Source of the DNA: an uncultured Deinococcales bacterium
GTDB lineage: Bacteria; Deinococcota; Deinococci; Deinococcales; JAAFIG01
DNA: 25,378 nt
Assembly (NCBI GenBank): GCA_964247135.1
Contig: CAXTTL010000045.1
Coordinates: forward strand, 1 to 25,378
Direction: 5' to 3'
Position 1 is the first letter of the stretch; every line of letters begins with the position of its first letter. The position numbers and the translations under genes were made by a program. Shown here piece after piece: positions 1 through 25,378 of the stretch. The notes below the pieces were generated by a model. The model was not told the DNA's origin. It saw nothing but the letters and a program-made list of their open reading frames with translations, and searched no databases.

Positions 1-593
1 TCGGGTACGACCCAAGCATTCCGCTGGCGCAATTTAACCTCGAGAAAGCCAAAGCATTTTTCAAGAAAGCTTTTGGCGGCAAACTCTGGGAGACTGGCTT
101 CACGACCATTGTCAAATACAACCAAGGCAACACGACCCGCAAGCGCATTGCCGAACTCTTGAAAGCTGGCATTGAAGCCGTCAGCCCCAAATTCCATCTC
201 GAGGTGCAGGTCATTCCGTTCGCGCAATTCTTGCAAGACCAACAAGCCAGCCGCCTGGCGCTTTCGGTTGGAGGTTGGGGTCCCGATTATCCCGATCCAG
301 ATGACTTTATCCCCATTTTTTACGGATCGAGTAAGGTCGGTGGTTATTACTCGCCCGCCACCAACTTCGAGAGCAAGACCATCGACAGTGCCATCTCTCA
401 AGCCCGCCAAACCACCGATACCGCCAAACGCGAAGCCCTCTACAAACTGATCGGACGCATCGGTGCCGACCAAGTGCCATTCATCTTGCTGCCGCGCGGC
501 ATCAGCTTCTTACCGATTCGTGACGACCTGAAAGGCGTGTATTACAACAACATGGTCAGTGGCTTGTACCTCTGGAAAGACTTGTCGAAATAA
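1..593 (+). CDS. Peptide/oligopeptide ABC transporter substrate-binding protein (family 5), 5'-truncated by window edge
   Basis: Frame is open from position 3 (GYDPSIPLAQFNLEKAKAFFKKAFGGKLWETGF...). It has the GWGPDYPDPDDF motif and precedes two OppB/OppC-type permeases. Confidence 0.9.
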   Translation, partial: GYDPSIPLAQFNLEKAKAFFKKAFGGKLWETGFTTIVKYNQGNTTRKRIAELLKAGIEAVSPKFHLEVQVIPFAQFLQDQQASRLALSVGGWGPDYPDPDDFIPIFYGSSKVGGYYSPATNFESKTIDSAISQARQTTDTAKREALYKLIGRIGADQVPFILLPRGISFLPIRDDLKGVYYNNMVSGLYLWKDLSK

Positions 594-613
594 GCAATCT
601 GCCCGAATGAGCC

Positions 614-646
614 GTGGCTCGAGCCTCAAAAGGATTCTCGAGCCAC
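614..646. terminator. Stem-loop built from two CTCGAG copies, downstream of the substrate-binding protein gene
   Basis: GTGGCTCGAG-N13-CTCGAGCCAC perfect 10-bp inverted repeat. No U-tract, so it may be an mRNA-stabilising or processing hairpin. Confidence 0.5.
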
Positions 647-663
647 ACCAGAAATCAATAAAA

Positions 664-742
664 CTCCCTTCTCCCGCTGGCGGGAGAAGCGCCCAAGCCC
701 GTCAGGTGCTGCTTTAAGGGCAAGACGGGTCGGGGATGAGGG
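664..742. repeat. REP-like palindromic element (CTTCTCCCGC..GCGGGAGAAG ... GGGGATGAGGG type) with an internal short repeat
   Basis: CTTCTCCCGC-TG-GCGGGAGAAG hairpin, then a CCCGTC-N20-GACGGG hairpin, then TCGGGGATGAGGG. Related sequence occurs at 19357-19423. Confidence 0.55.
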
Positions 743-784
743 TGGACAGTTCAACCCATTTCTCGAGCCTCAACGGAGAATCCC

Positions 785-1813
785 ATGCTGATTTTTGTGA
801 TGCGCCGATTGCTTGCCCTGCCGCTCGTCATGCTGGCGGTCACGGCTTTGATCGTGTTGTTAATGCAGTTTCTCAGCCCCGCCCAACGTGCCGCGTCGTT
901 CGTGCGCGGCGAGCAGCAGTTGCAAAACATTGATGCGCTGGTCAAGCAGTATGGTTTGGATCAACCGTTTTACGTGCAGTATTGGCATTGGATCAACAAT
1001 GCCGCGCAGGGCAATTTGGGTTACTCGAGGGCTTCGCATCAACCCGTGATGGACACCTTGCGAGAGCGTTTTCCGGCGACGGCAGAACTTGCTTTTTATG
1101 CTTGCCTGCCGATCATCGGGATTGGCATTTGGTTGGGAACGCTGGCGGGTTTGAACAAGGACAAACTGGTCGATCAGGTGGCTCGAGTCTTGGCGGTGAT
1201 CGGCTTTTCGTTGCCGACCTTTGTGCTGGGCATTTGGTTGCTGGTGATTTTTTACGGCGTGCTGGGTTGGTTGCCTGGCTTTGGGCAACTCTCGCAGGAG
1301 AGCACCTTGCAAATTGCGATTTCTGGTTTGAAGCGTTACACGGGTTTTTTGACGCTGGACACGCTCTTAAACGGACGCCTTGATTTGTTTGTCGATGCGG
1401 TCAAGCACCTGATTTTGCCCGTCACAACCCTCACTACCATCTCGAGCGCCGGTATTTTGAAGGTCATGCGTTCGAGTTTGCTCGAGGTGTTGGGGCAGGA
1501 TTACGTGCGCACGGCTCGAGCCAAGGGTTTGTCGGAACGCATGGTCAACCTCAAGCACGCGCGGCGCAATGCGCTCTTGGCGGTGGCAACCTTGGCGGGT
1601 TTGACGGTGGCTGGCTTGCTGACGGGCGCGATCATCACCGAAACGATTTTTGCGTACCCTGGCATCGGGTCTTGGGGCGCTCAGGCGGCAACCCAACTCG
1701 ATTATCCTGGCGTGCTCGGTTTCGCGGTCTTCACGGCGCTGCTGGTGGTGGTCGCCAATCTGGTGGTCGATCTGGCTTACGGCTTGATCGATCCTCGAGT
1801 GAGGTTTGAATGA
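785..1813 (+). CDS. Peptide ABC transporter permease (OppB/DppB)
   Basis: GLDQPFYVQY, RFPATAEL, DYVRTARAKGL (EAA-loop region) and ITETIFAYPGIG motifs. SD-like GGAGA upstream. Confidence 0.95.
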   Translation: MLIFVMRRLLALPLVMLAVTALIVLLMQFLSPAQRAASFVRGEQQLQNIDALVKQYGLDQPFYVQYWHWINNAAQGNLGYSRASHQPVMDTLRERFPATAELAFYACLPIIGIGIWLGTLAGLNKDKLVDQVARVLAVIGFSLPTFVLGIWLLVIFYGVLGWLPGFGQLSQESTLQIAISGLKRYTGFLTLDTLLNGRLDLFVDAVKHLILPVTTLTTISSAGILKVMRSSLLEVLGQDYVRTARAKGLSERMVNLKHARRNALLAVATLAGLTVAGLLTGAIITETIFAYPGIGSWGAQAATQLDYPGVLGFAVFTALLVVVANLVVDLAYGLIDPRVRFE

Positions 1814-2823
1814 TTTCCAGCGCTCCAATTCTTGAAGCCGCTCGAGTCACCAAGGAACCCTGGTGGGAATCTCGGGTGGTCAGACGTTTCAGGCGCAACA
1901 CCCTGGCGATGTTGGGCTTGGCAATCATGGTCTTGTTTGCCCTGATGGCGGCATTTGCGCCCCTGCTTGCTCCGCCCGAGCAAGCTTGCGCCCGCGATCT
2001 GGGCATCACCAATCGATCAAGCGTCTACAGCCTCACCAACTCGAGTTTCTGGCAGGTGATGTTCCGCCCGCCGGAGAACTGTTTTGTCATGCCGCGCATC
2101 AGTTTTTCGCCGATTCCGACACCGCCTGGGGTCGGCGGTCGGGTGTTTGGCACGTCCAACGGGTATGACATCAAGTACGGTTTGGTCTGGGGCGCTCGAA
2201 CCGCATTTTTTCTGGGTTTTACCGTCATTATTTCCACGCTTTGCATCGGAACGTTGATCGGCAGTTTGGCGGGCTATTTTGGCGGCTGGCTCGACAATCT
2301 GTTCATGCGTTTTACCGATGTGGTGTTTGCCTTTCCTGGTTTGGTGTTGACCATTGTTTTAATTGCGATTTTCGGGCAAAGTTTAAACAACATCATTTTA
2401 TCCTTGGTGCTGGTCGGTTGGAGCACCTACGCCCGCTTGTTGCGCGGCGAGATTCTGCGTGTGCGTCGCCTCGAGTACGTCGAGGGCGCTCGAGCTTTGG
2501 GGGCACGCGATGCCCGAATTATTCTTTGGCATGTCTTGCCCAATTCACTGACCGCTTTGACCGTACAAGCCACGCTCGACATGGGTTCTGTGGTGCTCTC
2601 GGCGGCGGCGTTGTCGTTCTTGGGGTTGGGAACGCCGCTGGGCTACAGCGATTGGGGGCAACTCATCAATTTTACCAGGGGATTCTTGCAGGGCGTTCCA
2701 GGGCAACCCTGGGCGTACTGGTACGTTTCGTTTTTCCCTGGCTTGGCACTGATTTTGTGGGGACTGTCCTGGAATCTACTCGGCGATGCCCTTCGTGATG
2801 CACTCGACCCTCGAGCGAGATGA
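1810..2823 (+). CDS. Peptide ABC transporter permease (OppC/DppC)
   Basis: EYVEGARALGA EAA motif, HVLPNS and ALSFLGLG motifs. ATGA overlap with the upstream permease. Confidence 0.95.
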   Translation: MISSAPILEAARVTKEPWWESRVVRRFRRNTLAMLGLAIMVLFALMAAFAPLLAPPEQACARDLGITNRSSVYSLTNSSFWQVMFRPPENCFVMPRISFSPIPTPPGVGGRVFGTSNGYDIKYGLVWGARTAFFLGFTVIISTLCIGTLIGSLAGYFGGWLDNLFMRFTDVVFAFPGLVLTIVLIAIFGQSLNNIILSLVLVGWSTYARLLRGEILRVRRLEYVEGARALGARDARIILWHVLPNSLTALTVQATLDMGSVVLSAAALSFLGLGTPLGYSDWGQLINFTRGFLQGVPGQPWAYWYVSFFPGLALILWGLSWNLLGDALRDALDPRAR

Positions 2824-2985
2824 TGCGGTGTCATGCGACTGTTTGGCGTGTTGAATCCCAAGTCAGTTAAGATGATTGCTGAACCCTGAGCTGTTTGATG
2901 CTCGAGCGAACCATGATTTCATTCGGCGCTCGAACCATTTGATTCTCGAACTTGATATCATCGTTTTTTTAACAGGAGCGACCCC

Positions 2986-3609
2986 GTGAAGCACTTTACC
3001 CAGGACATCACCAGAGCCTCAAAAACCAGAAAGCGTCGCCGCAGCAAAGTCCCAGAGCGTAAATTTTCCCGTTCGCTCGAGCTTGATGCCAGCGATGTGC
3101 TCGAGGTTGATCTGATGTCCGAATGGCTGGATTGCTTGACGGGTTTTGGCAATTACGAACCCAAAAAAGTACAGTCCGAGGCTCGAGGTAAGACGTTTAA
3201 AAACTATTTTGCCAACCTCGAGTTCGATCAGCAAAAACGCACCGCCGATTTGGTGTTTGACAGCGCCCTGGGCAAGCTCGAAGCCACGCGTTGGTATGTG
3301 CGCCCAAGCCTCGAGTTGATGCTTGAGCTGTGCAAGAACGGTTTTGAAAACGCGTTTGCCCATCGGCGCACGGAACTCGAGAACATGTTCTTGGATCAGG
3401 CGGCGTTTGAGGCGTGGCTCGAGGCGCGTCAGGGCAGCAAAGCCCCCAGGGGACGGGCGTTTTTGTACACCTGGCGTTACGCGATTTTGCTTTGGAATGT
3501 TTTGAACGCGCTGCATTCGCCGTTCTCGAGCGAAATTTTAACCAAACTCTTAAAACTTCATCGCTTATGGCGTGAAAAATTGCGATCTCACAGCCCTCAA
3601 CTCGAGTAA
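2986..3609 (+). CDS. Hypothetical protein
   Basis: 207-aa ORF with AGGAG upstream of a GTG start. No family recognised. Confidence 0.65.
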   Translation: MKHFTQDITRASKTRKRRRSKVPERKFSRSLELDASDVLEVDLMSEWLDCLTGFGNYEPKKVQSEARGKTFKNYFANLEFDQQKRTADLVFDSALGKLEATRWYVRPSLELMLELCKNGFENAFAHRRTELENMFLDQAAFEAWLEARQGSKAPRGRAFLYTWRYAILLWNVLNALHSPFSSEILTKLLKLHRLWREKLRSHSPQLE

Positions 3610-3640
3610 TCAATTTCTCGAGTATCAAAAAGAGGTTTTT

Positions 3641-4153
3641 ATGAAACGACTTGGCTGGTTTTTGCTGGCTGTCTTGAGCTTTTCTTTGGGAGGTTTTATG
3701 TCTGATTCAAACGCGCAACAGAGCATCGCTTGCTCTTCGCCTGAGCATCGTCAATTTGATTTCTGGCTTGGGGATTGGGAAGTCAAAACCCCCAACGGCA
3801 ATGCGGCTGGCACAAACCTTGTCACCTCAGAATTTGGGGGTTGCGTGCTGCAAGAACATTGGGTTGGCTCGCAGGGCGGTCGCGGCTCGAGTTTTAATAT
3901 TTTCTCCAGCGCAGACCAAAAATGGCATCAGGCTTGGGTCGATGATTCTGGTACGTTTCTAGATTTGACCGGCGGGTTTGAAGACGGCAAAATGATTCTG
4001 GTCAGCAACGCGCCCATGCCGACGGATCGAATCACCTGGAATCTGGTGGATGGCAATAAAGACCGTGTTCGACAGCTTTGGGAGCAAAGCAAAGATGGTG
4101 GTAAAACCTGGACGGTTGCGTTTGACGGGTTGTATGTTCGCAAAGCGCCCTGA
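3641..4153 (+). CDS. Secreted protein, DUF1579-like beta-barrel family
   Basis: Start re-called at ATG 3641 (AGAGG RBS, signal peptide MKRLGWFLLAVLSF...). Motifs QFDFWLGDWEV, W..WVD..G and SKDGGKTW..FDG.Y. Confidence 0.75.
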   Translation: MKRLGWFLLAVLSFSLGGFMSDSNAQQSIACSSPEHRQFDFWLGDWEVKTPNGNAAGTNLVTSEFGGCVLQEHWVGSQGGRGSSFNIFSSADQKWHQAWVDDSGTFLDLTGGFEDGKMILVSNAPMPTDRITWNLVDGNKDRVRQLWEQSKDGGKTWTVAFDGLYVRKAP

Positions 4154-4177
4154 TTTTAAGTTTGCATTCCGGTTCGA

Positions 4178-4236
4178 GTAGGGTGCGCCGTGCGCACCGT
4201 CTCTTATGCATATCTGGTGCGCGAGGCGCACCCTAC
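4178..4236. repeat. GTAG-family REP doublet in inverted orientation (REPIN)
   Basis: GTAGGGTGCGCCGTGCGCACC (4178-4198) and GGTGCGCGAGGCGCACCCTAC (4216-4236), between convergent genes. Confidence 0.85.
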
Positions 4237-4271
4237 CAAAAACTTCTATTTTGTTTGTGATCCTCGTGATC

Positions 4272-4883
4272 TTAGGTTTGTATTCTGGCTCGAGCCGCAG
4301 CTCGAGTCAGGGTTTTTTGTGTCGGAAATGCCAGCATCAACGCTGTTATTCTCAATCCCAATTCTTGCCCGCGCAGGTTCAAGCTGTAGTTTTTTCTCGA
4401 GCCTGCAATGCCCTCAAAAGGCTCGAGCAGCTTGGCGTGGCTTACGTGCCCCAAACCGAGCGCCAAAGCCCGTGTGGTCAATCCTGGCAGTTGCTCGAGG
4501 ATGTCTGTGAAGCGCGGTCGATCTTGCAAGAGCAAAATGATTGGCAGTGACCATTTTTTCAGGGCGATGTCGGTGATTTCAAGTCGCTCGAGGCTTTGCA
4601 TCAATTCAAAAACCGCTTGCCCAATCTGGACGCCTCGAGCCGTCAAAATATATTCGGGGCGCAGCGGGTGTCCGTAGCCAGGGTTTCGCATCACCAAATC
4701 TTCTGTAATCAAGGCGTTTAGGGTGCGACTGAGTGCGTCCTTGCTGAGTTTTAAACGGGTTACCAGCGTGACGAATTTGCAGCCGTTGCTGCGGTGCAGC
4801 TCCGCCAGAATCGGCAATGCCCAGCGAAAATGCACCAAATTGACCAGAGGCTCGAGATTAGGATTATTCATAAGTGCCACCAT
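4272..4883 (-). CDS. HxlR-family winged-helix transcriptional regulator with tandem HxlR domains
   Basis: Two repeats of the W.LPIL..L...F..L...L....L...L pattern and RPEYILTARG. Divergent from the VOC gene. Start could be 4871. Confidence 0.8.
   Translation of the reverse strand: MVALMNNPNLEPLVNLVHFRWALPILAELHRSNGCKFVTLVTRLKLSKDALSRTLNALITEDLVMRNPGYGHPLRPEYILTARGVQIGQAVFELMQSLERLEITDIALKKWSLPIILLLQDRPRFTDILEQLPGLTTRALALGLGHVSHAKLLEPFEGIAGSRKNYSLNLRGQELGLRITALMLAFPTQKTLTRAAARARIQT
4285..4319 (+). terminator. Intrinsic terminator-like hairpin with CTCGAG stem
   Basis: CTGGCTCGAGC-CGCA-GCTCGAGTCAG followed by GGTTTTTT. Overlaps the 3' tail of the HxlR ORF on the opposite strand. Confidence 0.55.
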
Positions 4884-4944
4884 TAAATTACGCTATTGAC
4901 AAAACAAGAATTTTGTATAAAAATAGTACCGAAAGGAGAACAAC

Positions 4945-5355
4945 ATGACAGCAACAGCAGATACAGTTCAAGTCGGCTCAAGCATCGGTATGACCACCGG
5001 TATAACCCTGGCGCTCGAGGTCAGCGACCTGGAACGTTCCAAAACCTTTTACAAAGAGGTACTCGGTTTCAGGTTTAGTTACGAAGTCACCGAGATTGGT
5101 TGGTGCGAATTTGAAAGCCCAACCAAAGATGTGATCATTGGGCTTTCAAAAGTCGAAAAGTCCAATGCTGGCGGTGGACTTGTCCCAACCTTCAACGTCA
5201 GCGACATTGCCCACACCCGCAGCCTGCTCGAGTCCAAAAATGTGCGCTTTGATGGTCCGACCAATGTCATGCCAGGTTTGGTGATGCTGGCGACCTTTTA
5301 CGATCCAGACGGACACGCGTTTATGTTGGCGCAATCTTTGGCGACGCCCAACTGA
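4945..5355 (+). CDS. VOC (glyoxalase/bleomycin resistance) family protein
   Basis: VSDLERSKTFYKEVLG and FYDPDGH motifs. AAGGAG RBS. Confidence 0.9.
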   Translation: MTATADTVQVGSSIGMTTGITLALEVSDLERSKTFYKEVLGFRFSYEVTEIGWCEFESPTKDVIIGLSKVEKSNAGGGLVPTFNVSDIAHTRSLLESKNVRFDGPTNVMPGLVMLATFYDPDGHAFMLAQSLATPN

Positions 5356-5392
5356 TTGGAACTTTTTTGAGCTTGGGCGCGTAAGCTTTGGC

Positions 5393-7030: not shown

Positions 7031-7119
7031 GCTCAAACATCAATTTATCTAACGCATGAATTCAGGGCATGACCTAAACACCGTCTGGATGTTTTGAAAC
7101 TTTCTGCTACAATCCAACC

Positions 7120-7446
7120 ATGATTCTCGAGCCAATCAAATCACCTTTGCGCGAAGAGCGTGGGGTTCTTCTCGTTGGCAAAACTCGAGTTGCTTTTGAA
7201 AGCCTATGGGCAGCCTATCAACGCGGTGAATCGCCCGAAGCCATACAGGAGAATTTTTCAAGCTGTTCCCTCGAAGAAATTTACGCCGTGATTGCCCATG
7301 CGCTTGCCAAGCCAGTAGAAATCAAAGCGTATCTCGAGCGCCGAATGCTCGAAGACGCGGCAAGTCTAGAACTTGTCAGACAAGAACCCAAAAGCACAGC
7401 CTTGCGGACGAAAATTTTGGATCGAGCGGCAACGCTTCAAAAGTGA
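7120..7446 (+). CDS. DUF433 domain protein (VapB45-like antitoxin)
   Basis: VGKTRV...G.SPE.I...F..L..IYAVIA pattern. TACAAT box 6 nt before ATG. Overlaps the DUF5615 gene. Confidence 0.85.
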   Translation: MILEPIKSPLREERGVLLVGKTRVAFESLWAAYQRGESPEAIQENFSSCSLEEIYAVIAHALAKPVEIKAYLERRMLEDAASLELVRQEPKSTALRTKILDRAATLQK

Positions 7447-7790
7447 TTTGTTTTGCCAGCGACGAAAATTTGCATGGTGCGATTGTGACGGGTTTGAAAC
7501 GCAGAATCCCAAATCTCGATTTGGTTCGTATTTGGGATGTCATTCCAATGGCGACAGACCTCGAAGTGCTCGAATGGTGCTTTGTGCAAAATCGTGTGCT
7601 TCTCACCCATGATGTCAACACCTTGCGTGCCGATGCGTATGAGCGGCTCGAGCAGGGATATGGTATTGCTGGAGTATTGCTCATTCCAACGCAATTGCCC
7701 ATCGCTGTTGTCTTGGATGATCTCGAGACGATTGCCTTATGCAGTGAGCAAGAAGATTGGGTTGACGCTGTTTTATTTTTGCCCTTATGA
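7443..7790 (+). CDS. DUF5615 PIN-like protein (VapC45-like toxin)
   Basis: F.SDENL, D..VLEW, RVLLTHD and GVLLI motifs. GTGA overlap with DUF433. Confidence 0.85.
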   Translation: MICFASDENLHGAIVTGLKRRIPNLDLVRIWDVIPMATDLEVLEWCFVQNRVLLTHDVNTLRADAYERLEQGYGIAGVLLIPTQLPIAVVLDDLETIALCSEQEDWVDAVLFLPL

Positions 7791-7877: not shown

Positions 7878-7893
7878 CAAAGCCAAGAAAAAA

Positions 7894-13105: not shown

Positions 13106-13142
13106 AAATTCCCACCCTCGAGTCTCGAGCATGGGAATTTTT
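13106..13142. terminator. Probable bidirectional terminator containing two CTCGAG
   Basis: AAATTCCCA-CC-CTCGAG-T-CTCGAG-CA-TGGGAATTT(TT), between convergent MarC and DAK2 genes. Confidence 0.7.
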
Positions 13143-13162: not shown

Positions 13163-14765
<1,603 letters not shown>

Positions 14766-14773
<8 letters not shown>

Positions 14774-16548: not shown

Positions 16549-16570
16549 GAATACCTTTCAATGGCGCGGC

Positions 16571-17071: not shown

Positions 17072-17089
17072 GTTGCCTTCCCTCCAGGC

Positions 17090-17122: not shown

Positions 17123-17205
17123 GCCCGTTGCTACACTTTCGTGAGTCATGATTCTCTGAAACGAGCCGTCAATACATCCAAGGCTGGCGTGTTAACCTAA
17201 ACCCA

Positions 17206-17619: not shown

Positions 17620-17678
17620 GTTCACATTGTGATGCAGATTCATCGTTTGCTGATATTTACACGCTAAACTTTAAATTC

Positions 17679-18080
17679 ATGGTCGCTTTGAAGAAAACCA
17701 CTTCCTTCACCGCCTCGAGATTCTTATTGATTCTTGGCTTGGGCGTGACATTTTTTGCGGTATATGTGCAGGTTCGGGTTTCGGCGCAAAAGATCATCCC
17801 AACCTATTACACGGACGTTCAACCGATCCTCGAGAAAAACTGTGTCTCGTGCCATGTCAAAGGCGGCATTGCGCCGTTTGTCCTCGATAACCCAAAAGAG
17901 GCTGTGGCTCGAGCCGAGCGCATCGCGCAAGTCACGCAGTCTGGTTACATGCCGCCGTACCCTCCTGGGCAAGATTCGCAACCGTTTTTGAACGAACGCC
18001 GATTGGGTGTTGCATCCAAACAAATTCTTTTCGACTGGGCAAAAGCGGGCGCTCCGCTTGGTACGGCACCGAAAAAATAA
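17679..18080 (+). CDS. Exported/membrane-anchored c-type cytochrome
   Basis: N-terminal hydrophobic segment, CVSCH heme motif, GGIAPF, MPPY (possible Met ligand) and W...GAP. Confidence 0.85.
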   Translation: MVALKKTTSFTASRFLLILGLGVTFFAVYVQVRVSAQKIIPTYYTDVQPILEKNCVSCHVKGGIAPFVLDNPKEAVARAERIAQVTQSGYMPPYPPGQDSQPFLNERRLGVASKQILFDWAKAGAPLGTAPKK

Positions 18081-18105
18081 AATGCCAAAAAGTAAAGGGA
18101 GAGCC

Positions 18106-19344
18106 ATGAAAAAAATTCCGACCCGAGCGATGGCGGCAATGCTGGTGGCAGGATTTGGAGCGCTCAGTTTGGGCTTTGCGACCTTTGGCGGTCTGCCCCC
18201 AGAGGCAAGTTTGCATAATTTTGACCTGGCTGGCAGCAACCACATGCACCGCGTCAACCAGAACATTTCTGACGTTGCCTGGAGTTTAAATCCGCCAACC
18301 TCGAGCAAGTTAGCCACTGCCAAACCCGACGCGATTCTGACCCCAGAAAGCGCTTATACCCCAGACTCGAGCAGCAACGACGATTACCACTGCTTTTTGC
18401 TCGATCCAAAACTGACCCGCGATACCTTTGTGACCGCCACCAACGTCAAACCAGACCAAGCCAGCATTGTGCATCACGTGATTTTATTTAAAATCGGACC
18501 CGAAAATGCTGCCGAGGCTCGAGCCAAAAACCAAGCCTCCGGCGGTAAAGGTTGGACGTGTTTTGGCGGTTCGGACGTTGGCGATATTCGCACCACCGCC
18601 AACAGTTGGTTGGCGGCGTGGGCGCCAGGCTCGAGCGCCCAGACGATGCCAGAAGGCATCGGCGCACTGCTCACAAAAGGCTCATTGATCGTGATGCAAG
18701 TGCATTACAACCTCACCACTGGCGTCAAACCAGACCGCACCAGCGCCGAATTGACCTATGCGCCCGAGGGAACCCAACTGACCCCAATTCAGACGATACT
18801 CGGCTATGCGCCAGTCGAAATTCCTTGCCCCGACGGTCTGAACAGCCCGCAGTGCGACCGTCAGACGGTCTTGAACGAAAACGTTCAAAAATACGGGCAG
18901 AGGGTTGCTTACATCCCGTTAGGCTTGCTGTACGTCTGCAAGAAAAAACTCGAGGATTACCCCAAATCGGTCGGCGATGCCAGCGAGATCAAAACCTCTT
19001 GCGACCGCGAAGTCAAAAAAGCCAGCACCCTCTACGCCGTGGCTGGACACATGCACCTGCGCGGGCAAGACATCAAACTCGAGTTAAACCCTGGCACGGG
19101 TCGCGCCAAAACCTTGTTGCACATTCTCAAATGGGACTTTCACTGGCAGGGCAATTATTGGTTTAAAACCCCGCTCGAGATTGAACCTGGCGATGTCTTG
19201 CGGCTTTCGTGCACGTATGACAACAGCGTGGCGGGTCAACCCGTGTTGAACGGTGTACAAGCCAGCCCGCATTACATCACTTGGGCGGAAGGCACAACCG
19301 ACGAGATGTGCCTGAGCATTCTGACCTCGGCGCCGAAAAAATAA
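18106..19344 (+). CDS. Secreted copper type II ascorbate-dependent monooxygenase-like protein (PHM/DBH family)
   Basis: Start re-called at ATG 18106 (AGGGAG RBS, signal peptide). CuH ligands VHHVI and QVHY, CuM ligands HMH and EMC, plus WDFHWQ. Confidence 0.88.
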   Translation: MKKIPTRAMAAMLVAGFGALSLGFATFGGLPPEASLHNFDLAGSNHMHRVNQNISDVAWSLNPPTSSKLATAKPDAILTPESAYTPDSSSNDDYHCFLLDPKLTRDTFVTATNVKPDQASIVHHVILFKIGPENAAEARAKNQASGGKGWTCFGGSDVGDIRTTANSWLAAWAPGSSAQTMPEGIGALLTKGSLIVMQVHYNLTTGVKPDRTSAELTYAPEGTQLTPIQTILGYAPVEIPCPDGLNSPQCDRQTVLNENVQKYGQRVAYIPLGLLYVCKKKLEDYPKSVGDASEIKTSCDREVKKASTLYAVAGHMHLRGQDIKLELNPGTGRAKTLLHILKWDFHWQGNYWFKTPLEIEPGDVLRLSCTYDNSVAGQPVLNGVQASPHYITWAEGTTDEMCLSILTSAPKK

Positions 19345-19356
19345 TTGCTCTGTCTG

Positions 19357-19423
19357 CTCTCATCCCCGAGCCTTCTTGGAATCAAGAAGGTGCTGCTGTA
19401 AGGGGCAAGAAGTCGGGTGAGAG
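19357..19423. repeat. Nested palindromic REP-like element related to 664-742
   Basis: CTCTCATCCCCGA...TCGGGTGAGAG outer arms, CCTTCTTG-GAAT-CAAGAAGG inner hairpin, and AGGTGCTGCTGTAAGGGGCAAGA core. Confidence 0.55.
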
Positions 19424-19488
19424 TTTTGCTTCTAAGGTAGACTCCTGGGGTTGCTCGAGGGAGTCTCGAGTCTTTTGGAGGTCAGATC

Positions 19489-20367
19489 ATGTCAACAGCC
19501 TTAAATCTTGCAGGTGATCCTGCTGCCGAAGCTTTGTTAAACCGCGCCAAAGACGAGATGCAGGCTCTAAGCGCCGTGCCAAACCTGGTGGTCGTGCGAA
19601 TCGGTGATGATCCTGCTAGCGTTTCGTACACCCGCATGAAAACCCGCAGGGCAAAAAAAGTCGGTTTGGACTCGAGCCTGATCGAACTGCCAACAAGCAT
19701 CTCTGAAGCCGAGATGCTCGAGTTGATCGAGAAATTGAATGCCGACGATACGGTCAGTGGCATTCTGGTGCAACTCCCTTTTCCCAAAGGTTCAGCAGTG
19801 AGCGAAAAACGGATTCTCGAGGCGATTGACCCTGCCAAAGACGTGGACGGTTTGCATGTGGTCAACGTTGGGCGTTTGTGGGCGGGCGAGCCAGGCTTAA
19901 GACCATGCACACCAGCCGGAGTGATCTCGATGCTGGACTTTTACGGCATCCCGCTCGAGGGCAAACGCGTGGTCATCATCAACCGTTCGCAACTGGTCGG
20001 CAAACCCCTCGCCGCCCTGATGCTCGAGCGCAACGCCACCGTGACCATTGCGCACTCGAGGACGCACGACATGAAAGCCGTGACGCTCGAGGCGGATGTG
20101 CTCGTGACCGCCGTGGGTCGCGTGAACTTCATCACGCCCGAGATGGTCAAACCTGGCGCGGTGGTGATCGATGTCAGCATCAACCGCATTGCGGACGCGA
20201 ACGGTGAAGCCAAACTGGTCGGCGATTGCCACCCCGATGTCGCCAGCGTTGCCGGCGCCCTCACGCCCGTCCCAGGCGGCGTCGGACCGATGACGGTCTC
20301 GCATTTATTGTACAACACCGTGCAAGCCTGCAAAAACCAATTGCAGGCTCGAGCAAACTCCAAGTAA
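19489..20367 (+). CDS. folD: Bifunctional methylenetetrahydrofolate dehydrogenase/cyclohydrolase
   Basis: DDPASVSY, GILVQLP, KDVDG, PCTPAG and TPVPGGVGPMT motifs. Confidence 0.97.
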   Translation: MSTALNLAGDPAAEALLNRAKDEMQALSAVPNLVVVRIGDDPASVSYTRMKTRRAKKVGLDSSLIELPTSISEAEMLELIEKLNADDTVSGILVQLPFPKGSAVSEKRILEAIDPAKDVDGLHVVNVGRLWAGEPGLRPCTPAGVISMLDFYGIPLEGKRVVIINRSQLVGKPLAALMLERNATVTIAHSRTHDMKAVTLEADVLVTAVGRVNFITPEMVKPGAVVIDVSINRIADANGEAKLVGDCHPDVASVAGALTPVPGGVGPMTVSHLLYNTVQACKNQLQARANSK

Positions 20368-20420
20368 CCCGAGTAGAATACAATTCAACGTATCCGCTCG
20401 AGTCGCCCTTTGGAGAACCC

Positions 20421-20885
20421 GTGTTTGAACAACTGCTGCACAATCAACTGCTCTGGACGGCGCTGGTCGCTTCGACGGGCGCTCAAATTTTGAAGGTTTT
20501 TCTGGTGCTGCTGTCCGAACGTTCCTGGCAACCCGCTCGGTTTCTCGAGACTGGCGGGATGCCGAGTTCGCACACCGCCAGCGTGGTGGCATTGTCGGTG
20601 GGTTGCGGCATCAAATACGGCTGGGACAGCCCATACTTTGCGATTGCCACGATCTTTGGCATGATCGTGATGTATGACGCCACCGGCATTCGTCGAGCCA
20701 GCGGAATGCAAGCCGAGTTGATCAACGATCTTGTTGAAGAACTTCGCGCCGTGGTGCGCGAAGGGTTCACGCCCAAACCATTAAAAGAACTCTTGGGTCA
20801 CACCTATTTCGAGGTTTTTGTCGGCATGTTGTGGGGCATTTTGGTGGCGGTGCTGTCGTTCTTGGTGGTTGCCAAACAAGCTTAA
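20421..20885 (+). CDS. Divergent PAP2 family protein (DUF212)
   Basis: Start re-called at GTG 20421 (GGAGA RBS). GGMPSSH, VMYDA.GIRR and LKELLGHT..EV motifs. Confidence 0.92.
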   Translation: MFEQLLHNQLLWTALVASTGAQILKVFLVLLSERSWQPARFLETGGMPSSHTASVVALSVGCGIKYGWDSPYFAIATIFGMIVMYDATGIRRASGMQAELINDLVEELRAVVREGFTPKPLKELLGHTYFEVFVGMLWGILVAVLSFLVVAKQA

Positions 20886-21088
20886 CTCGAGCCTGTGCGC
20901 CCCAAGGTTGGTGTTGGACGAAGCCGAATTTTGATGCGGCGCTCAGGCGTTTTGAAAACATTGCGCAGGGTTGCCCGCAAAATTTCACCCTCACCGACGG
21001 TCACGGTCACCACCGTACCATCGGGCAGCTTTGTGCCAGCCTCGAGCACAATCACACCATCTTTGACCAGACCCTTATAAGCCCGCAT
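20882..21088 (-). CDS. Small hypothetical protein (N-terminus resembles AF2212/DUF104-like swapped-hairpin proteins)
   Basis: AYKGLVKDGVIVL...LPDGTVVTV pattern. TAAACT box 6 nt before ATG. Confidence 0.7.
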   Translation of the reverse strand: MRAYKGLVKDGVIVLEAGTKLPDGTVVTVTVGEGEILRATLRNVFKTPERRIKIRLRPTPTLGRTGSS

Positions 21089-21097
21089 GACTTTAGT

Positions 21098-21508
21098 TTA
21101 CTCGAGAATATCCTCTTTCAACCGTGACACAATGCGCTCAAGTTTTTCGGTGTTTTGCCCGCGCTTTTTTTCGATCAGCACGAAACGCTCGAAGACCTCG
21201 ATGGCTTCGCGGCGACGGTTTGCCCGCACCAGCAAATCGCCCAAGAATTCATTTTCCAGTAAATAACTCGAGAATTCCTCGGGCGCAAGGGCAATGTTGG
21301 CTTTGATGGTCTCAATTTTTTCCTGGGTTTCGCGGTAACGTTTGACGCGCTCGCGGATCACAAACCAAGCAACCACCGCTATCGCCCCAAAAACCGCGCC
21401 CAGAATGCTCGAGGCTTGAGGGATGCCGTTCGCGTTCGCCAAACGCACCAGCACTGGGAACGAGAGTCCCAGCACCACCAGCACGGCAAGCAATGCGGCA
21501 TAATTCAC
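21098..21508 (-). CDS. Hypothetical membrane protein with TPR-like C-terminal helices
   Basis: Two hydrophobic segments followed by LGDLLVRANRRREAIEVFER. Confidence 0.7.
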   Translation of the reverse strand: MNYAALLAVLVVLGLSFPVLVRLANANGIPQASSILGAVFGAIAVVAWFVIRERVKRYRETQEKIETIKANIALAPEEFSSYLLENEFLGDLLVRANRRREAIEVFERFVLIEKKRGQNTEKLERIVSRLKEDILE

Positions 21509-21553
21509 GCACCCACCCTAACCCGACAGGCACTTTAAGGGCAACCAGAGGGC

Positions 21554-22375
21554 TTAAATCACGTCCAAACCAAGCCCATCAAAAAACCCGCGCAACGGAT
21601 AACTCGAGATGGCACCGCGAATCCCACCCAAACTGAAATTCTCGAGGCTCATGCGTTTTTGCATTTGTTCGCGTTGCGCTTCGGGCATCTGACCCATTCT
21701 GGATGTCGGACCCACCTGCGAGGCGTGTGCCTTTAATGCCGCCATCTTCTGCTCGAGGTGGGCTGCAATGTCGTGACTGAAGGCAATTGTGTCCTCGGAA
21801 ACACCGTACAATTCTGGCTCGAGTCCAGGCGTTGGCGTGGCGCTCGAGTTAAACATCATGCGGGCAATCTCGATGGGGAACGCCGTGTAAAACAAACGCT
21901 TTGGCGCGTCCGGCAAATGTCCGCTCGAGAAAAACGCCGCCAGCGCCGCGCTGTGAATCACCAAATGATCCGGATGCCCGTAACCGCCGTGAGGATCAAA
22001 CGTCAGCATCACCTGCGGTTTGACCTGTTCAATCACCGCCTTGATTTTGGCTTCAACCTCGAGCGGGTCGGCATTGATGCTCGCCAGAGGATCGTCTTTG
22101 CGCAGACGCTCGAGTCGTCCAGAGTCGTGATAGCCCAAAAAAATTGGCGGGTTGATGCCCAGGGCTTGGCAGGCGTTTTGAAGCTCAGTTTCACGTAGCG
22201 CACCCACGTCTTTAACTTCGCCCAAAACTGGATCGGTGACTTTGCCAGCCTCACCACGGGTCGAACTGATCAACGTCACGTCCACACCCAAGCTTGCATA
22301 ATGCGCCAGCGTGCCGCCGCTCGAGAAGGCTTCATCGTCAGGGTGGGCGAACACGGCAAGCAAAGAGGGTTTCAC
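21554..22375 (-). CDS. PIG-L/LmbE family deacetylase (MshB/BshB-like)
   Basis: AHPDDE, TRGEAG, GGYGHPDH and AHASQ motifs. Confidence 0.93.
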   Translation of the reverse strand: MKPSLLAVFAHPDDEAFSSGGTLAHYASLGVDVTLISSTRGEAGKVTDPVLGEVKDVGALRETELQNACQALGINPPIFLGYHDSGRLERLRKDDPLASINADPLEVEAKIKAVIEQVKPQVMLTFDPHGGYGHPDHLVIHSAALAAFFSSGHLPDAPKRLFYTAFPIEIARMMFNSSATPTPGLEPELYGVSEDTIAFSHDIAAHLEQKMAALKAHASQVGPTSRMGQMPEAQREQMQKRMSLENFSLGGIRGAISSYPLRGFFDGLGLDVI

Positions 22376-22443
22376 CAGATCAGTATGACCGATTTGGAAG
22401 GCGCGAAAAGACTTTTCAAATTCATTTCACCAGCCATAAAAGA

Positions 22444-22629
22444 CAGGGCAACCGCAAAGTCCGAATTTTGCCCATTTTGTCGGAATTCTCGTTTGCTTGC
22501 GGGCGAAGACAAGCTTCGCCCCTACGAAAAAACATTGTCCTGTAGGGGTGAACCTTGTGTTCACCCTTGCGACGGGAAGACCTCCATACATTGTTTGGTT
22601 CATTGGTTTACGACTTTGCGGTTGCCCTG
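22444..22629. mobile_element. MITE (186 bp), probably ISAs1-family derived, containing two GTAG REPs
   Basis: Perfect 18-bp terminal inverted repeats CAGGGCAACCGCAAAGTC (22444-22461) and GACTTTGCGGTTGCCCTG (22612-22629). Flanking 10-bp direct repeat CCATAAAAGA (22434-22443, 22630-22639). No transposase. Confidence 0.85.
22501..22566. repeat. Two divergent GTAG-family REP palindromes inside the MITE
   Basis: GGGCGAAGACAAGCTTCGCCCCTAC (22501-22525) and GTAGGGGTGAACCTTGTGTTCACCC (22542-22566). Confidence 0.75.
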
Positions 22630-22845
22630 CCATAAAAGAAACGCAGCCGCAAAGTTACGGTTCTTTTATGGCAAAATAGTGCTTTATCTTGACTTGAAAC
22701 GCTCGAGTTCAGTTCAAGGCACAGGTTTTTGCATTGCATTTCAGCTCAGTTTGATCCAAGAGCTAATCATTGCTACCTGACGTTGGTATGGTTTTTTGTT
22801 GCTAAATTTTGGGAAAAATGAACTGACTGGAAAAGCTTGAGGCAC

Positions 22846-22875
22846 AAAAAACCGCCAAGGTTGGTCTTGGCAGTT
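22846..22875 (-). terminator. Intrinsic terminator after the small peptide gene
   Basis: Minus strand AACTGCCAAG-ACCAAC-CTTGGCGGTT-TTTTG, 30 nt after the stop codon. Confidence 0.75.
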
Positions 22876-22905
22876 GGAAACTCGAGAGTGAATTTTTAGC
22901 TCGAA

Positions 22906-23040
22906 TTAGGGTTGAGTACATGGTGCAGAAGTTCGGCAGTGCGCTGCTATGTCTTTTGGTGATCCAGCAAACGCTGCACTCAGCGACAAGACGGCAAGTA
23001 AAGTGGAGATGATGGAAATTGCTTTAACAAATTTCTTCAT
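22906..23040 (-). CDS. Small secreted propeptide (44 aa: signal peptide plus 19-aa CX5C peptide)
   Basis: AGGAGG RBS before ATG 23040. MKKFVKAISIISTLLAVLSLSAAFA|GSPKDIAAHCRTSAPCTQP, with an A-F-A signal peptidase I site and its own terminator. Confidence 0.8.
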   Translation of the reverse strand: MKKFVKAISIISTLLAVLSLSAAFAGSPKDIAAHCRTSAPCTQP

Positions 23041-23086
23041 AAAACCTCCTGTGTATGCTTGAGAATTTAAGCTCTTGCACGTCTGG

Positions 23087-23120
23087 AGCTTACTTTTGAA
23101 GGTGGGAAAAAACTGGGAAA
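23087..23120 (-). promoter_or_regulatory. Candidate activator-dependent promoter of the peptide gene
   Basis: Minus strand TTTCCCA-gttt-TTTCCCA (11-bp period), then 10 nt, then a TAAGCT -10-like box. Confidence 0.5.
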
Positions 23121-23123
23121 CAC

Positions 23124-24889
23124 TCAAACCACCCGCAGCCCCAAACGTTCCAAACTTTGCCGCAGCAAATCGCTTGGCGCGAGTCCAAACTCTTCGGACA
23201 GCATTCGCGCATACGCACCGTAAGCCTGGTTTGCCGCCGCCACGCCGCCGAGCGCCAAATGCACCCGAATCAAACCCAGATGACTGACCTCGGACAGCGG
23301 CTCGAGTTCGATGGCACGGCGGTAGATTTTCAGCGCCTCGCGCGATTGTGTCTGCTCGAGTTGCTCCGCCAAGGTCGCGGCGGCTGCCACGGTTTGCTCG
23401 AGGACCCGCGTGCGAATTTCGGCGACCCATTCGGTGTTGACCCCAGGCAAAAATTCGCCGTGGTAAGCCTCAAGCGCCGCCTGCAATTGCAGCATGTTGC
23501 CCGACTCGAGGGCGTGTTGTGCCAGCTCAAAATCGAGCTTTGGGCTTAATTGCGGCGCGAGTGAATAGAGTTTGTTCTCGAAAGGAAAGGCGTTGAATCC
23601 AACCTCTGGGTGCTCGCTCAGCGCGGCGCGTAAACGCCTTGCCGCAACCCGAAAATACTCGTGATGACGGGTTTCAATCGAACCGTCCCAAAGCGCGTTC
23701 ATGATCTCCTCGCGGCTGGATGCGCCGTGCAGCGCCACAAAAATCAGCAACTCGCCCGCCTTGGCAAATGGAATCCGAATTGGCGTGCCGTTCAGACTGA
23801 TTTGCAGTTTGCCCAAGGTCAGAATCTCGAGTTCAAAAGTTGGTTGAGGGATTGCGGCTGCAATTTCGGGTGCTGCTCGGGTTGGAGAATTCTCCACAAA
23901 ACGACTGAAGCGCTCGTTAAACCAACCGCGTTCGATGCAGCTTGCGAACAGATCATGCAGCGGTTCGGCATCGACCATCAGAACGTTGTCGTGCGGCATC
24001 GCGTCAAGGCTGACAATCAAACCTTTGACCTGTTCAAACTCGAGCGAATTTTCTTGACGTGCAATCTCTGCCAGATACGCTCGAGCGCGGGGCTTATGGG
24101 CGGATTCCTCGGATTTTTCCAGCGCCCCACTCAAATATTGACGTGCCGCCTCGAGGTTGTGAGTCCAGAAATTGGCAATGCCCTGATAAAAAGCGTAGAC
24201 CCCTTGAAGGTCGCTGTTGGATTGAGAGTCGTGACCCAGACGCTCCAAGATGCCGGTGGCTCGGGTTGGCTGGTTTGAACGCAGCCAGCTTTCGCTTTGT
24301 TTGAGTTCGATGATCTGCGCCAAGACCTGATCGCCCAGTTCTTGCGCACTGGCAATGCAGTTTTGGTAAGCGGCGATGGCTTGTTCAAAGTTTTGCTGCC
24401 AGAAGTAAACATCCCCCCGAAGCTCGAGAAAGTACGGCAGCAAACGGCTTTGTTCGCGCATTCCAAGTGATATGCCCTGTTCGATCAGGGAAAAAGCTTC
24501 GCCGGTACGGTTTTGCAGGTAACGCAAACTTGCCAGATCAATCAAAAGCGGCAAGGTCCGAACGGGTGTGCCCAGGGCTTCCTACACCTCCATCGCCCGC
24601 AAAATTGATTTCTCGCATTCAAACCACTGCCCCAGGCGGTACTGAATCAATTTTAAGCTGCTGAGGTTGTTGCCCAACTCGCCCAGGTTGTCGTGGTCTT
24701 CCGCCCTTCAATGCGGGCAAACTGCGCCAGCAAGGTGGTCTTGCCATAACCAGAGGGCGCGATCAAAGCCGTCAGTTGCAGATCGCTGGCAGCCTCGAGT
24801 TGCGAAAGTAACCTGGCGCGTTCCAACTCGAAGCGCAGTTTCTTGGGTATGACACTCGAGAGGTCATCATTTGCCCTGCTGCCTGACAT
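23124..24889 (-). pseudogene. Disrupted P-loop (MalT/STAND-like)-TPR-wHTH-BTAD transcriptional regulator
   Basis: The N-terminus has Walker A APSGYGKTTLLAQF. The frame switches near 24693-24702 directly into TPR-like sequence (EDHDNLGELGNNLSSLKLIQYRLGQW...), then hits an in-frame TAG at 24582-24584. After it come an intact TPR region, LEILTLG/SREEIMNALW wHTH and BTAD (YHGEFLPG, LEPLSE) region to 23124. Confidence 0.85.
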
Positions 24890-25057
24890 GAAAACCATCT
24901 TATTCGATTGGTGATGATTCAGAATCAAAGTCATGTTCAACCTGTCTGCAAGGCGCGATTTTTGTAGCGACCTTATACCTTAGGTTAGCAATAGACTGGT
25001 CACACGGTGGTCACAAAAGGAATACTTTCGATGCTTGCCAGATTAAGCTTTAAATTT

Positions 25058-25378
25058 TCAATCGAGCCGCAATTGTGCCATCACGTCACGCTCCATGACT
25101 TCAATCGGTTGACCAACGTCCAGCACCCAGGCATCCTGTGGTGGCTCGAGCGTACTGATTTGAGATTCGAGCAAAATGGCTGGCATAAAATGCTTTCGGG
25201 CTTTCATGCGCCCTGCGATCAAATCACGGTTGCCATTCAAAAAAACAATTTTCACGCCCTCGAGATTTGCGGTGAGCGTCTGACGGTAATTGGCTTTGAG
25301 TGCCGAACACGCCAGCACAAGCGATTGAGTCTCGAGAAGATGCTGTTCAATCAGGGCGTGAAGCCGCTCTAACCAAGG
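25058..25378 (-). CDS. Gluconokinase (GntK/IdnK family), 5' part outside window
   Basis: Frame is open from the window edge (WLERLHALIEQH...). VLACSALK..YR, R.HFMP..LLESQ..TLEPP motifs. Confidence 0.9.
   Translation of the reverse strand, partial: PWLERLHALIEQHLLETQSLVLACSALKANYRQTLTANLEGVKIVFLNGNRDLIAGRMKARKHFMPAILLESQISTLEPPQDAWVLDVGQPIEVMERDVMAQLRLD

Follow-up and report, generated by a model that had tools for sequence, protein, structure and literature searches.

CTCGAG as a highly iterated palindrome across a family of uncultured Deinococcales

Introduction

The window analysed here is a stretch of 25,378 bases from an uncultured Deinococcales bacterium, and it raises the question of why the palindrome CTCGAG recurs all along it, within genes and between them, and what keeps it there. 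An earlier note, made from the sequence alone, had proposed a system like HIP1 (GCGATCGC), the highly iterated palindrome (HIP) of cyanobacteria, with methyltransferase-linked drive among its possible causes. The analysis upholds the first part of this proposal, as the word is a lineage-wide palindrome and not a codon effect, whereas the gene content lends no support to methyltransferase-linked drive. CTCGAG is almost certainly a genuine HIP-type word, shared throughout a family of uncultured Deinococcales, and it is very probably maintained by a directional force that reads the whole site. The role and origin of HIP1 have been open for three decades, during which it was studied just in cyanobacteria, and CTCGAG provides an independent comparison case.

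Abundance of CTCGAG in the window and its genome

The window contains 180 exact copies of CTCGAG (7.1 per kb). At its GC content of 0.5386, base composition predicts approximately 7.1 copies by hand calculation, and 100 dinucleotide-preserving shuffles gave a mean of 5.00 (standard deviation 2.15, maximum 10), none of them reaching 180. The count of about 180 in the earlier note thus proves to be exact, and its estimate of about 7 expected copies, or an enrichment of about 25-fold, holds at the computed GC content. According to our own gene calls, which are based on open reading frames (ORFs), the CTC-GAG frame accounts for 51 copies in plus-strand genes and 40 in minus-strand genes, the xxC-TCG-AGx frame for 21 and 16, and the xCT-CGA-Gxx frame for 15 and 10, and 27 copies are intergenic or lie at gene boundaries. 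This split agrees with the earlier description of copies in all three phases, on both strands and in intergenic DNA.

The window is contig C45 of G000, a metagenome-assembled genome (MAG) of 5.09 Mb in 386 contigs that is 84% complete. This genome carries 33,925 copies of CTCGAG, which is 24.8 times the expectation from base composition and corresponds to approximately 6.66 per kb (about 6,660 per Mb). CTCGAG is the most frequent hexamer of G000, leading by more than twofold, and the runners-up are overlapping fragments of the word itself. The pentamer CTCGA is followed by G in 88% of cases, and 62% of all TCGA tetramers sit within CTCGAG. Every one of the 297 contigs of at least 5 kb carries the word, at 2.56-10.5 per kb (median 6.8), and so does every one of 825 five-kb windows, each at 1.6 per kb or more. 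Together with its presence in all 19 genomes of the family described below, this rules out a contig or assembly artefact, and the enrichment is not confined to one contig or library, as the earlier note had allowed that it might be. The 66 tRNA genes of G000 (found with aragorn) hold 1.95 CTCGAG per kb, which is below the genome and above the composition expectation. As a separate observation, these tRNA genes hold 16 of the 131 copies of TTCGAA in the genome.

The flanks of CTCGAG in G000 are near random, with G at -1 in 39% of sites and C at +1 in 38%, and positions beyond these are near background. Across related genomes, approximately 6.5% to 15% of the sites are extended to GCTCGAGC; this longer word is no more common than its two flank frequencies, multiplied together, would predict, and extended palindromy was therefore rejected. 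Because the flanks carry almost no information, the unit is the bare hexamer and not a repeat element. A dispersed element of the repetitive extragenic palindromic (REP) or miniature inverted-repeat transposable element (MITE) kind is accordingly ruled out as the source, as no conserved sequence extends past the hexamer core.

Spacings between copies in G000 have a mean of 148 bp and a coefficient of variation of 0.96. Short ones are depleted: 1,355 are below 20 bp compared to 3,339 expected (41% of Poisson), and the density of pairs less than 50 bp apart is 0.62 of background. A spacing of 6 never occurs, since such a pair would create GAGCTC, which is absent from G000. Pair distances examined up to 600 bp revealed no phasing at 10 bp or 150 bp, and their density is flat beyond 50 bp.

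Codon null models and the effect on proteins

To separate the word from the codons that compose it, genes were taken as our own ORFs scored by codon log-odds, which yielded 4,375 genes covering 83% of G000, some of them on the wrong strand, and the codon nulls were run on those of 600 nt or longer, which number 2,958. These genes contain 23,827 copies of CTCGAG, of which 14,763 lie in the CTC-GAG frame, 3,524 in the xCT-CGA-Gxx frame and 5,540 in the xxC-TCG-AGx frame. A within-gene shuffle of synonymous codons, which keeps both the protein and the codon counts, leaves 3,256 ± 39 (2,554, 227 and 475 in the same frame order), and a permutation of whole codons leaves 1,395 ± 37 (1,001, 129 and 265). 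The excess over the amino-acid- and codon-preserving shuffle is therefore 7.3-fold and is present in every frame; the earlier note had judged codon or dipeptide bias alone an unlikely cause, and the enrichment does not vanish, in any frame, under the codon-preserving shuffle that it had named as the decisive comparison. The synonymous shuffle is a conservative null, because CTCGAG itself inflates the usage of its codons, and 44% of all CTC and GAG codons in G000 fall inside the word. In a 4th-order Markov model of the genome the ratio of observed to expected copies (O/E) is 1.24, which is not a valid null, since the 5-mers of such a model are mostly pieces of CTCGAG. The density is 7.19 per kb in non-coding DNA and 6.55 per kb in coding DNA.

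The consequences extend to the proteome. With 19,030 occurrences, Leu-Glu has the highest O/E (2.35) of all 400 dipeptides in G000, whereas the reverse pair Glu-Leu stands at 1.02, and 77.6% of the Leu-Glu pairs are spelled CTCGAG. Arithmetic from the dipeptide counts gives approximately 11,000 excess Leu-Glu pairs. Elsewhere the Leu-Glu O/E is 2.33 in a second genome of the same family (G005), 1.63 in G038 of family f5, 1.08 in family f2 and 0.97 in family f3. The force acts at the level of DNA, with a strength that suffices to overrule the choice of codons and to exchange amino acids for others.

Distribution in the family and the order

The order was sampled with 121 Deinococcales genomes, namely the 19 species genomes in five genera of the family that includes G000 (family f1) and 102 genomes of four sister families. 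All 19 genomes of f1 contain between 12,028 and 35,442 copies of CTCGAG, or approximately 4.3-6.8 per kb by rounded genome sizes, and the densest of the 102 sister genomes reaches about 3.1 per kb. Relatives with high GC content have 1.2-3 per kb, partly through codon usage. The ratio to the codon-preserving null is 7.0 in G005, 3.1 in the f5 genome G038, where it holds in all frames, 1.7 and mostly out of frame in the f2 genome G013, and 0.07 in the f3 genome G014. Family f3 (26 genomes of one genus) has just 40-942 copies per genome, and the sample of G014 contains 2 in 140 kb at a GC content of 0.665. No XhoI-family nuclease was found in the 26 f3 genomes, so another type of CTCGAG-cutting enzyme is likely to be present in this family. 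Family f1 is thus the extreme of a tendency that is weaker elsewhere in the order, and the word is avoided in one sister lineage at least. In the G013 sample, GAGCTC is nearly absent.

CTCGAG is also dense in some viral sequences, where at least 120 stretches hold three copies within about 80 bp. Ten such contigs (L423, L402, L422, L408, L436, L417, L367, L432, L430 and L340), a sample skewed by the pattern used to find them, carry the word at 4-6 per kb, 12-18 times the expectation from composition, at GC contents of 0.56-0.70, and 2.0-4.7 times the codon-preserving null in all frames. Compared with G000 by tblastx, nine of the ten gave no match and one gave a weak match, and therefore the viral scan is uninformative on the phages of family f1.

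Retention, gain and loss of sites

If the word is maintained, its positions should outlast ordinary sequence. Alignment of 400 kb of the best-assembled congener (G005) to G000 gave 319 kb at 85.2% identity, and in these columns CTCGAG occurs 2,074 times in G000 and 1,915 times in G005, with 1,639 sites in common. The resulting Jaccard index is 0.697. Of the hexamers that occur 100 times or more, 1,152 in number, none has a higher index, the median being 0.320 and the 95th percentile 0.437. An independent repeat of the comparison with G004, which aligns to G000 over 261 kb at 83.7% identity, gave 0.665, again the highest, among 833 hexamers with a median of 0.29. In non-coding DNA, 198 of 268 sites are kept between G000 and G005 and their 15-base flanks are about 80% identical; at 0.80 identity a neutral hexamer is expected to be kept in approximately 26% of cases (0.8 to the sixth power, by hand).

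The same holds for synonymous positions. Third positions were compared between G000 and G005 at sites where the codon is the same and its first two bases are unchanged, and their divergence inside and outside CTCGAG, respectively, is 0.075 and 0.359 for CTC, 0.062 and 0.311 for GAG, 0.075 and 0.273 for TCG, 0.132 and 0.407 for CGA, and 0.164 and 0.458 for xCT. The pooled divergence of four-fold sites is 0.301. The G004 replicate gave 0.06-0.11 inside as opposed to 0.29-0.43 outside, and overall, synonymous third positions diverge approximately 3-5 times more slowly inside the word. Words that differ from it by one base are poorly kept: the Jaccard index is 0.088 for CTTGAG, 0.065 for CTCAAG and 0.088 for CTGGAG, and such neighbours range from 0.065 to 0.34 against the median of 0.32. 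At sites that the two genomes do not share, single differences number 62, 81, 63, 55, 68 and 63 from the first to the sixth position, and 315 of these 392 are transitions. This even spread over the six positions is unlike a process that acts on one methylated or deaminated base.

Rates of gain and loss were estimated pairwise from synonymous transition positions at which the other five bases are intact in both genomes. Loss amounts to 0.018-0.088 in the context of CTCGAG compared to 0.11-0.27 in controls. Gain amounts to 0.40-0.90 compared to 0.05-0.28, although these gain figures are upper estimates and probably too high, because the estimator is unpolarised and assumes stationarity while absolute losses exceed gains. 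The ratio of motif-making to motif-breaking bases is 4.6-42.7, as opposed to 0.2-2.4 in controls, and the log-odds shift toward motif-making synonymous transitions is approximately 1.9-3.6, at all six positions and in every frame.

Since this estimator is unpolarised, two polarised samples were built. One is the window aligned with G001, G003 and G005, which provides 109 site columns, 59 of them common to all aligned genomes. The other is a three-way alignment of G000, G004 and G005 over 41.8 kb, in which the genomes are mutually 84-86% identical and star-like in their relationship. Per-site rates from the three-way alignment agree in direction with the pairwise estimates, with a smaller effect. 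The polarised loss of CTCGAG per branch is 0.140, the 15th lowest of 434 hexamers (median 0.294), and its gain from transition neighbours is 7 of 68, or 0.103, which ranks 17th of 2,435 (median 0.029, 95th percentile 0.070). Loss is thus slowed at CTCGAG, to approximately half, and gain by transition is speeded, to about 3.6 times that of a typical hexamer.

Search for a cognate methyltransferase or nuclease

CTCGAG is the target of XhoI and PaeR7I, and the genomes were searched for methyltransferases and nucleases that might match it. Methyltransferase specificity is read here from sequence, which gives no proof. G000 encodes two C5 methyltransferases, beta-class enzymes of PF01555, one D12 enzyme, one HsdM-like protein, two proteins of the MmeI family and one Eco57I-like protein of 1,499 aa; a search of this genome for Vsr gave no match. 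Every type II methyltransferase found in it adjoins a nuclease of another, recognisable family. The M.PvuII-like enzyme N4N6b (501 bits to PDB 1BOO) is partnered with R.PvuII (222 bits), C5a with the NgoPII family (286 bits), C5b with the Eco29kI family (228 bits), N4N6a with the MvaI/BcnI family (217 bits), N4N6c, whose N-terminal part is a contig-edge fragment, with a NotI-like protein (25 bits, weak), and the D12 enzyme with a SacI-like protein (30 bits, weak). The words that we take to be the targets of these six nucleases are nearly absent from G000: CAGCTG has 15 copies, CCGCGG 11, GCGGCCGC and GAGCTC none, and GGCC 380 (O/E 0.016), and CCSGG has an O/E of 0.066. In all, about two dozen six-base palindromes other than CTCGAG are nearly absent; besides GAGCTC, CCGCGG and CAGCTG they include GGGCCC (1 copy), CGGCCG (3), CGTACG (5), GGATCC (7) and GCATGC (17).

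None of these enzymes of G000 is shared by the whole family. Matches to C5a of at least 70% identity occur in just G001, G012 and G090 of f1, and those to C5b in just G001 and G002, with a further match in G007 at 50%; neither query found a C5 methyltransferase in G008 (21,883 copies of CTCGAG, 91% complete) or in G043. N4N6b was a candidate since its sole matches outside f1 lie in mildly enriched genera, and it was rejected as an M.PvuII enzyme with R.PvuII adjoining that is found in 4 of 18 f1 genomes. N4N6a was likewise rejected, given its nuclease partner and its presence in 1 of the 18. The closed genome G011, with 23,515 copies of CTCGAG, gave no PF01555 match. Proteins of PF01555, PF07669 and PF02384 were clustered from five genomes, one per genus, and G000, and no ortholog group of these families or of PF00145 is present in more than three of the six genomes. 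From one genome to another, gamma-class proteins are no more than 25-27% identical. The D12 class is found in 17 of 18 f1 genomes, and its sequenced representatives split into a SacI-linked group and an M.CbeI-like group (310 bits to 7M6B), the target of M.CbeI presumably being GGCC. The N6 enzymes of about 500 aa are type I HsdM, and the proteins of 844 and 929 aa belong to the MmeI family. Furthermore, a scan of G000 for the motif (D/N/S)PP(Y/F/W/H) returned 27 ORFs, and a Pfam search with 14 untyped ones and the contig-edge fragment identified no new candidate methyltransferase, by a filter that is not exhaustive and that some known methyltransferases escaped; the matches were metabolic enzymes and one rRNA methyltransferase, and one ORF of 514 aa had no Pfam match.

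Nucleases gave a similar picture. The XhoI family (PF04555) is found in none of the 19 f1 genomes, G000 included, and in 6 of the 121 genomes of the order sample, five of which belong to family f4. The methyltransferases that lie beside the XhoI nucleases of f4 match G000 at 25-28% identity, on enzymes that were already typed. The only C5 methyltransferase of G011 appears to form an operon with an HD-CE protein and an ORC/Cdc6-like ATPase, which is a defence-like arrangement.

Explanations for the maintenance of CTCGAG

These patterns suggest that the force is a bias in fixation or repair, such as selection or biased gene conversion, and not a mutational effect at one position, and that it operates independently of a conserved cognate methyltransferase or of XhoI-type restriction-modification. 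Of the mechanisms that fit, we rank first one in which CTCGAG might mark 'self DNA' when incoming DNA recombines. A fragment or heteroduplex strand with the exact word would be favoured at uptake, during processing or as a repair template, and alleles with the word would thereby displace alleles without it, in a population-level drive that would require no methylation. Such a process would resemble the molecular drive put forward for uptake sequences and the transformation or Chi-like role proposed for HIP1. Natural competence is known from Thermus and Deinococcus, G000 encodes ComEC, and one low-GC restriction-modification pair (GC content 0.389), nearly private to G000, has 0.64 CTCGAG per kb compared to 6.66 genome-wide. 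Studies of HIP1 report that it enhances transformation and has an effect like that of Chi, and they propose that it serves as an uptake sequence. A link of the maintenance to transformation or recombination is put forward tentatively, and the full account, which combines a HIP-type word, a DNA-level force and a role in the recombination of self DNA, is plausible without being probable. The narrower idea that the family writes or defends the exact word by a dedicated conversion free of methylation, through heteroduplex repair or through a bias in uptake or recombination, we regard as somewhat doubtful; if it is true, CTCGAG represents a second, independent origin of a HIP outside cyanobacteria, without the methyltransferases thought to be central to HIP1.

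Several results weigh against this account. ComEC is also present in control genomes of sister lineages that lack the excess, and therefore competence alone explains nothing. A palindromic 6-mer is unlike the known uptake sequences, and 6.7 per kb is several times their density. In the polarised window sample, our own reading of the patterns gives approximately 33 losses and 12 gains, and single-step changes give approximately 21 losses and 2-4 gains. In the three-way alignment, 201 sites are present in all three genomes, 98 in two and 63 in one, so losses again exceed gains, and at just 10 of the 63 single-genome sites do the two genomes without CTCGAG agree in the word that they carry. Gain from transversion neighbours is 0 of 93. 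A hand correction, which allows for how likely an ancestral one-off word is to persist unaltered in both of two lineages, puts single-step gains at approximately 10 per branch (a wide interval of about 4-20) compared to approximately 23 losses, and hence the genus may be slowly eroding CTCGAG or may be at steady state. The gene content also leaves room for an enzyme: since the genomes are MAGs and incomplete (84% for G000), a methyltransferase could be missing from them, some gamma- and beta-class enzymes of G005, G008, G009 and G010 and the C5 enzyme of G011 are untyped, and non-orthologous enzymes of the same specificity could substitute for each other across genomes.

Such an enzyme would be the basis of a methylation-linked drive of the type proposed by Elhai for HIPs, in which a methyltransferase of CTCGAG or TCGA marks the sites and methylation-guided repair makes and restores them, the enzyme having been missed through MAG gaps, in an unsearched family or as a different enzyme in each genome. 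Each f1 genome examined encodes several methyltransferases, with a gamma-class protein of 499 aa in G009, a beta-class protein of 329 aa in G008, the C5 enzyme of G011 and the 1,499-aa protein of G000 among those untyped. Natural m5C methylation of CTCGAG exists in Halorubrum, and according to Elhai 2015 (PMC4390886) a methyltransferase that matches part of the word is present in every cyanobacterial genome with a HIP. Nevertheless, this drive is unlikely given the lack of an ortholog group in more than three of six genomes, of C5 matches in G008 and G043 and of a PF01555 match in the closed G011. The D12 groups are M.CbeI-like or SacI-linked, the type II enzymes of G000 are paired with other nucleases, Vsr was not found there, the f4 enzymes beside XhoI nucleases match G000 at just 25-28% identity, and the effect is equal at six positions rather than centred on one deaminable base. 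CTCGAG could alternatively be the site of an abundant nucleoid-associated or chromosome-organising protein, with exact sites under weak purifying and positive selection. The near-uniform density and the depletion of neighbours within 50 bp (0.62) would fit such a protein, and so would the positional and codon conservation, the pattern from which Xu et al. (PMC5861425) argue for selection on HIP1. However, no candidate protein was found, there is no phasing at 10 bp or about 150 bp, and one-off variants are less conserved than ordinary hexamers, unlike those of HIP1, so binding would need to be all-or-none; we consider this explanation improbable.

A methylation-independent repair nickase, which would recognise a heteroduplex with one perfect CTCGAG strand and direct the excision of the imperfect strand, would jointly account for slow loss, fast gain, the equality of the six positions and the preference for the exact word, with no need of a methyltransferase. 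This proposal is purely inferential and quite unlikely: no XhoI-family nuclease is present in the 19 f1 genomes, although nuclease diversity leaves room for one of another kind, and as a pure equilibrium mutation bias it should make gains equal to losses, whereas they differ in the small polarised samples. Finally, the word might be a by-product of codon, dipeptide or oligonucleotide bias, of a repeat family, or of assembly or binning. The codons CTC and GAG and the dipeptide Leu-Glu are all frequent, the order-4 Markov ratio is just 1.24, albeit in a model whose 5-mers the word dominates, and high-GC relatives owe part of their 1.2-3 per kb to codon usage. Against this stand the 7.3-fold excess over the codon null, the equal density in non-coding DNA, the random flanks, the conservation of orthologous positions across independently assembled genomes and the presence of the word in 19 of 19 family genomes, by which this explanation can practically be dismissed.

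Relation to known iterated words

CTCGAG resembles HIP1 in being a short, GC-containing palindrome that is hyper-abundant, occurs in all frames and in non-coding DNA and is found throughout a lineage in whose genomes many other palindromes are avoided. Both words are also conserved in position above control words, and codons are conserved more inside each word than outside. CTCGAG differs in being a hexamer of another phylum, whereas HIP1 is an octamer of cyanobacteria. Elhai 2015 (PMC4390886) gives 1,000-2,000 copies per Mb for cyanobacterial HIPs and a matching methyltransferase in every HIP genome surveyed; CTCGAG, in contrast, reaches approximately 6,660 per Mb, and no matching methyltransferase was found. 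In Xu, Lawrence and Durand 2018 (PMC5861425), tests of position and codon conservation lead to the conclusion that HIP1 is maintained and not merely replenished, and one-off variants of HIP1 are more conserved than controls. The instability of one-off variants separates CTCGAG from HIP1. CTCGAG therefore agrees with the HIP class in abundance, in dispersal as a bare word and in positional and codon conservation, and departs from it in one-off conservation and in that no cognate methyltransferase was found. Features common to the two words are likely to be essential to the phenomenon, and those that differ, for example methylation, are not. No published report of a CTCGAG excess in this lineage was found in searchable full text, with subscription journals and supplements outside its reach, and supplements of HIP papers beyond the searched text could list non-cyanobacterial cases.

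The uptake signal sequences (USS) of Pasteurellaceae and the DNA uptake sequences (DUS) of Neisseriaceae are asymmetric words of 9-12 bp at about 1 per kb. Like them, CTCGAG is a genome-wide word that is found in coding and non-coding DNA, distorts peptides, is conserved in position and is scarcer in recent acquisitions; unlike them, it is palindromic and just 6 bp long, lies in random flanking sequence, reaches 6.7 per kb and lacks an asymmetric core. We know of no uptake specificity in Deinococcales. The word is the same as that recognised by XhoI and PaeR7I, and XhoI-family nucleases do occur in the order, mainly in f4, but restriction targets are normally avoided, as in f3, whereas CTCGAG is abundant in f1, which has neither the nuclease family (0 of 19 genomes) nor an ortholog of the adjoining methyltransferase. 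Very-short-patch repair by Dcm and Vsr raises words of the CCWGG type, acts at one deaminated position and needs both a C5 methyltransferase and Vsr. It shares with CTCGAG a repair bias that would convert near-cognate words to the cognate one, but the six positions of CTCGAG behave alike, G000 has no Vsr match, and G008 and G043 have no C5 match.

CTCGAG illustrates the extent to which a force at the level of DNA can reshape a proteome, including replacements in housekeeping enzymes. In addition, its strong compositional signal can be used in family f1 to bin sequences and to spot recently acquired DNA. In cloning, digestion with XhoI would cut these genomes to pieces of about 150 bp.

Loci of the window and minor observations

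The FolD gene of the window illustrates the effect on a housekeeping enzyme. Its closest named relatives are from Deinococcales MAGs, at 93% and 91% identity, followed by Thermaceae (58%), Deinococcaceae (55%) and Truepera (53%). An ortholog alignment revealed that 7 of its 8 sites are common to two other MAGs of the family, whereas four non-family orthologs have 1 CTCGAG each, all at one conserved Leu-Glu. Four further in-frame sites of FolD encode Leu-Glu in the family, and there most non-family orthologs have other residues, for example Arg-Arg, Arg-Ala, Arg-Glu or Arg-Gln. The FakA-like gene has DNA matches at 68-71% identity in genera g3 and g5. Coordinates of these and other features are collected in Table 1.

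Table 1. Coordinates of the features discussed, in the window unless a genome is named
Feature	Position	Strand	Remarks
Dispersed CTCGAG	1..25378	both	180 copies; all three frames and intergenic
Intergenic CTCGAG	618..767		starts 618, 637, 762; between ORFs ending at 593 and starting at 785
Short dispersed intergenic repeat	618-756		core approximately 637-745
Recurring short stretch	4178-4240
Closest CTCGAG pair	13117..13129		starts 13117 and 13124, spacing 7
FakA-like (DAK2) gene	13163..14773	minus	Pfam assignment; housekeeping; CTCGAG sites at 13166-14533
445-aa ORF	18007-19344	plus	weak Pfam matches
Recurring short stretch	19386-19426
FolD gene	19489..20367	plus	Pfam THF_DHG_CYH domains; 8 CTCGAG
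CTCGAG starts in FolD	19671, 19717, 19816, 19954, 20023, 20055, 20086, 20348
Six restriction-modification loci of G000	C36:19235-21059; C14:36040-37936; C178:2930-4752; C189:4077-5632; C207:3-1650 with C4:2-400; C320:1061-2985
G038 (f5), codon-null sample	C1:1000001-1120000
G013 (f2), codon-null sample	C4:1000001-1140000
G014 (f3), codon-null sample	C1:100001-240000
C5 methyltransferase operon of G011	C1:4979788-4983684	minus

The short dispersed repeat near the start of the window gave 73 high-scoring segment pairs in a BLAST search of G000, which span about 70-120 bp at approximately 80-90% identity; matches in the congeners G001, G003 and G005 and in G007 number in the dozens. This element, possibly MITE- or REP-like, contains or adjoins the CTCGAG copies that start at 618 and 637. 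The two other short stretches listed recur on other contigs of G001 and G005 at 84-98% identity. Both weak Pfam matches of the 445-aa ORF are to copper type II ascorbate-dependent monooxygenase domains (PHM/DBH-like; 36.5 and 34.9 bits), members of a group that is better known from animals.

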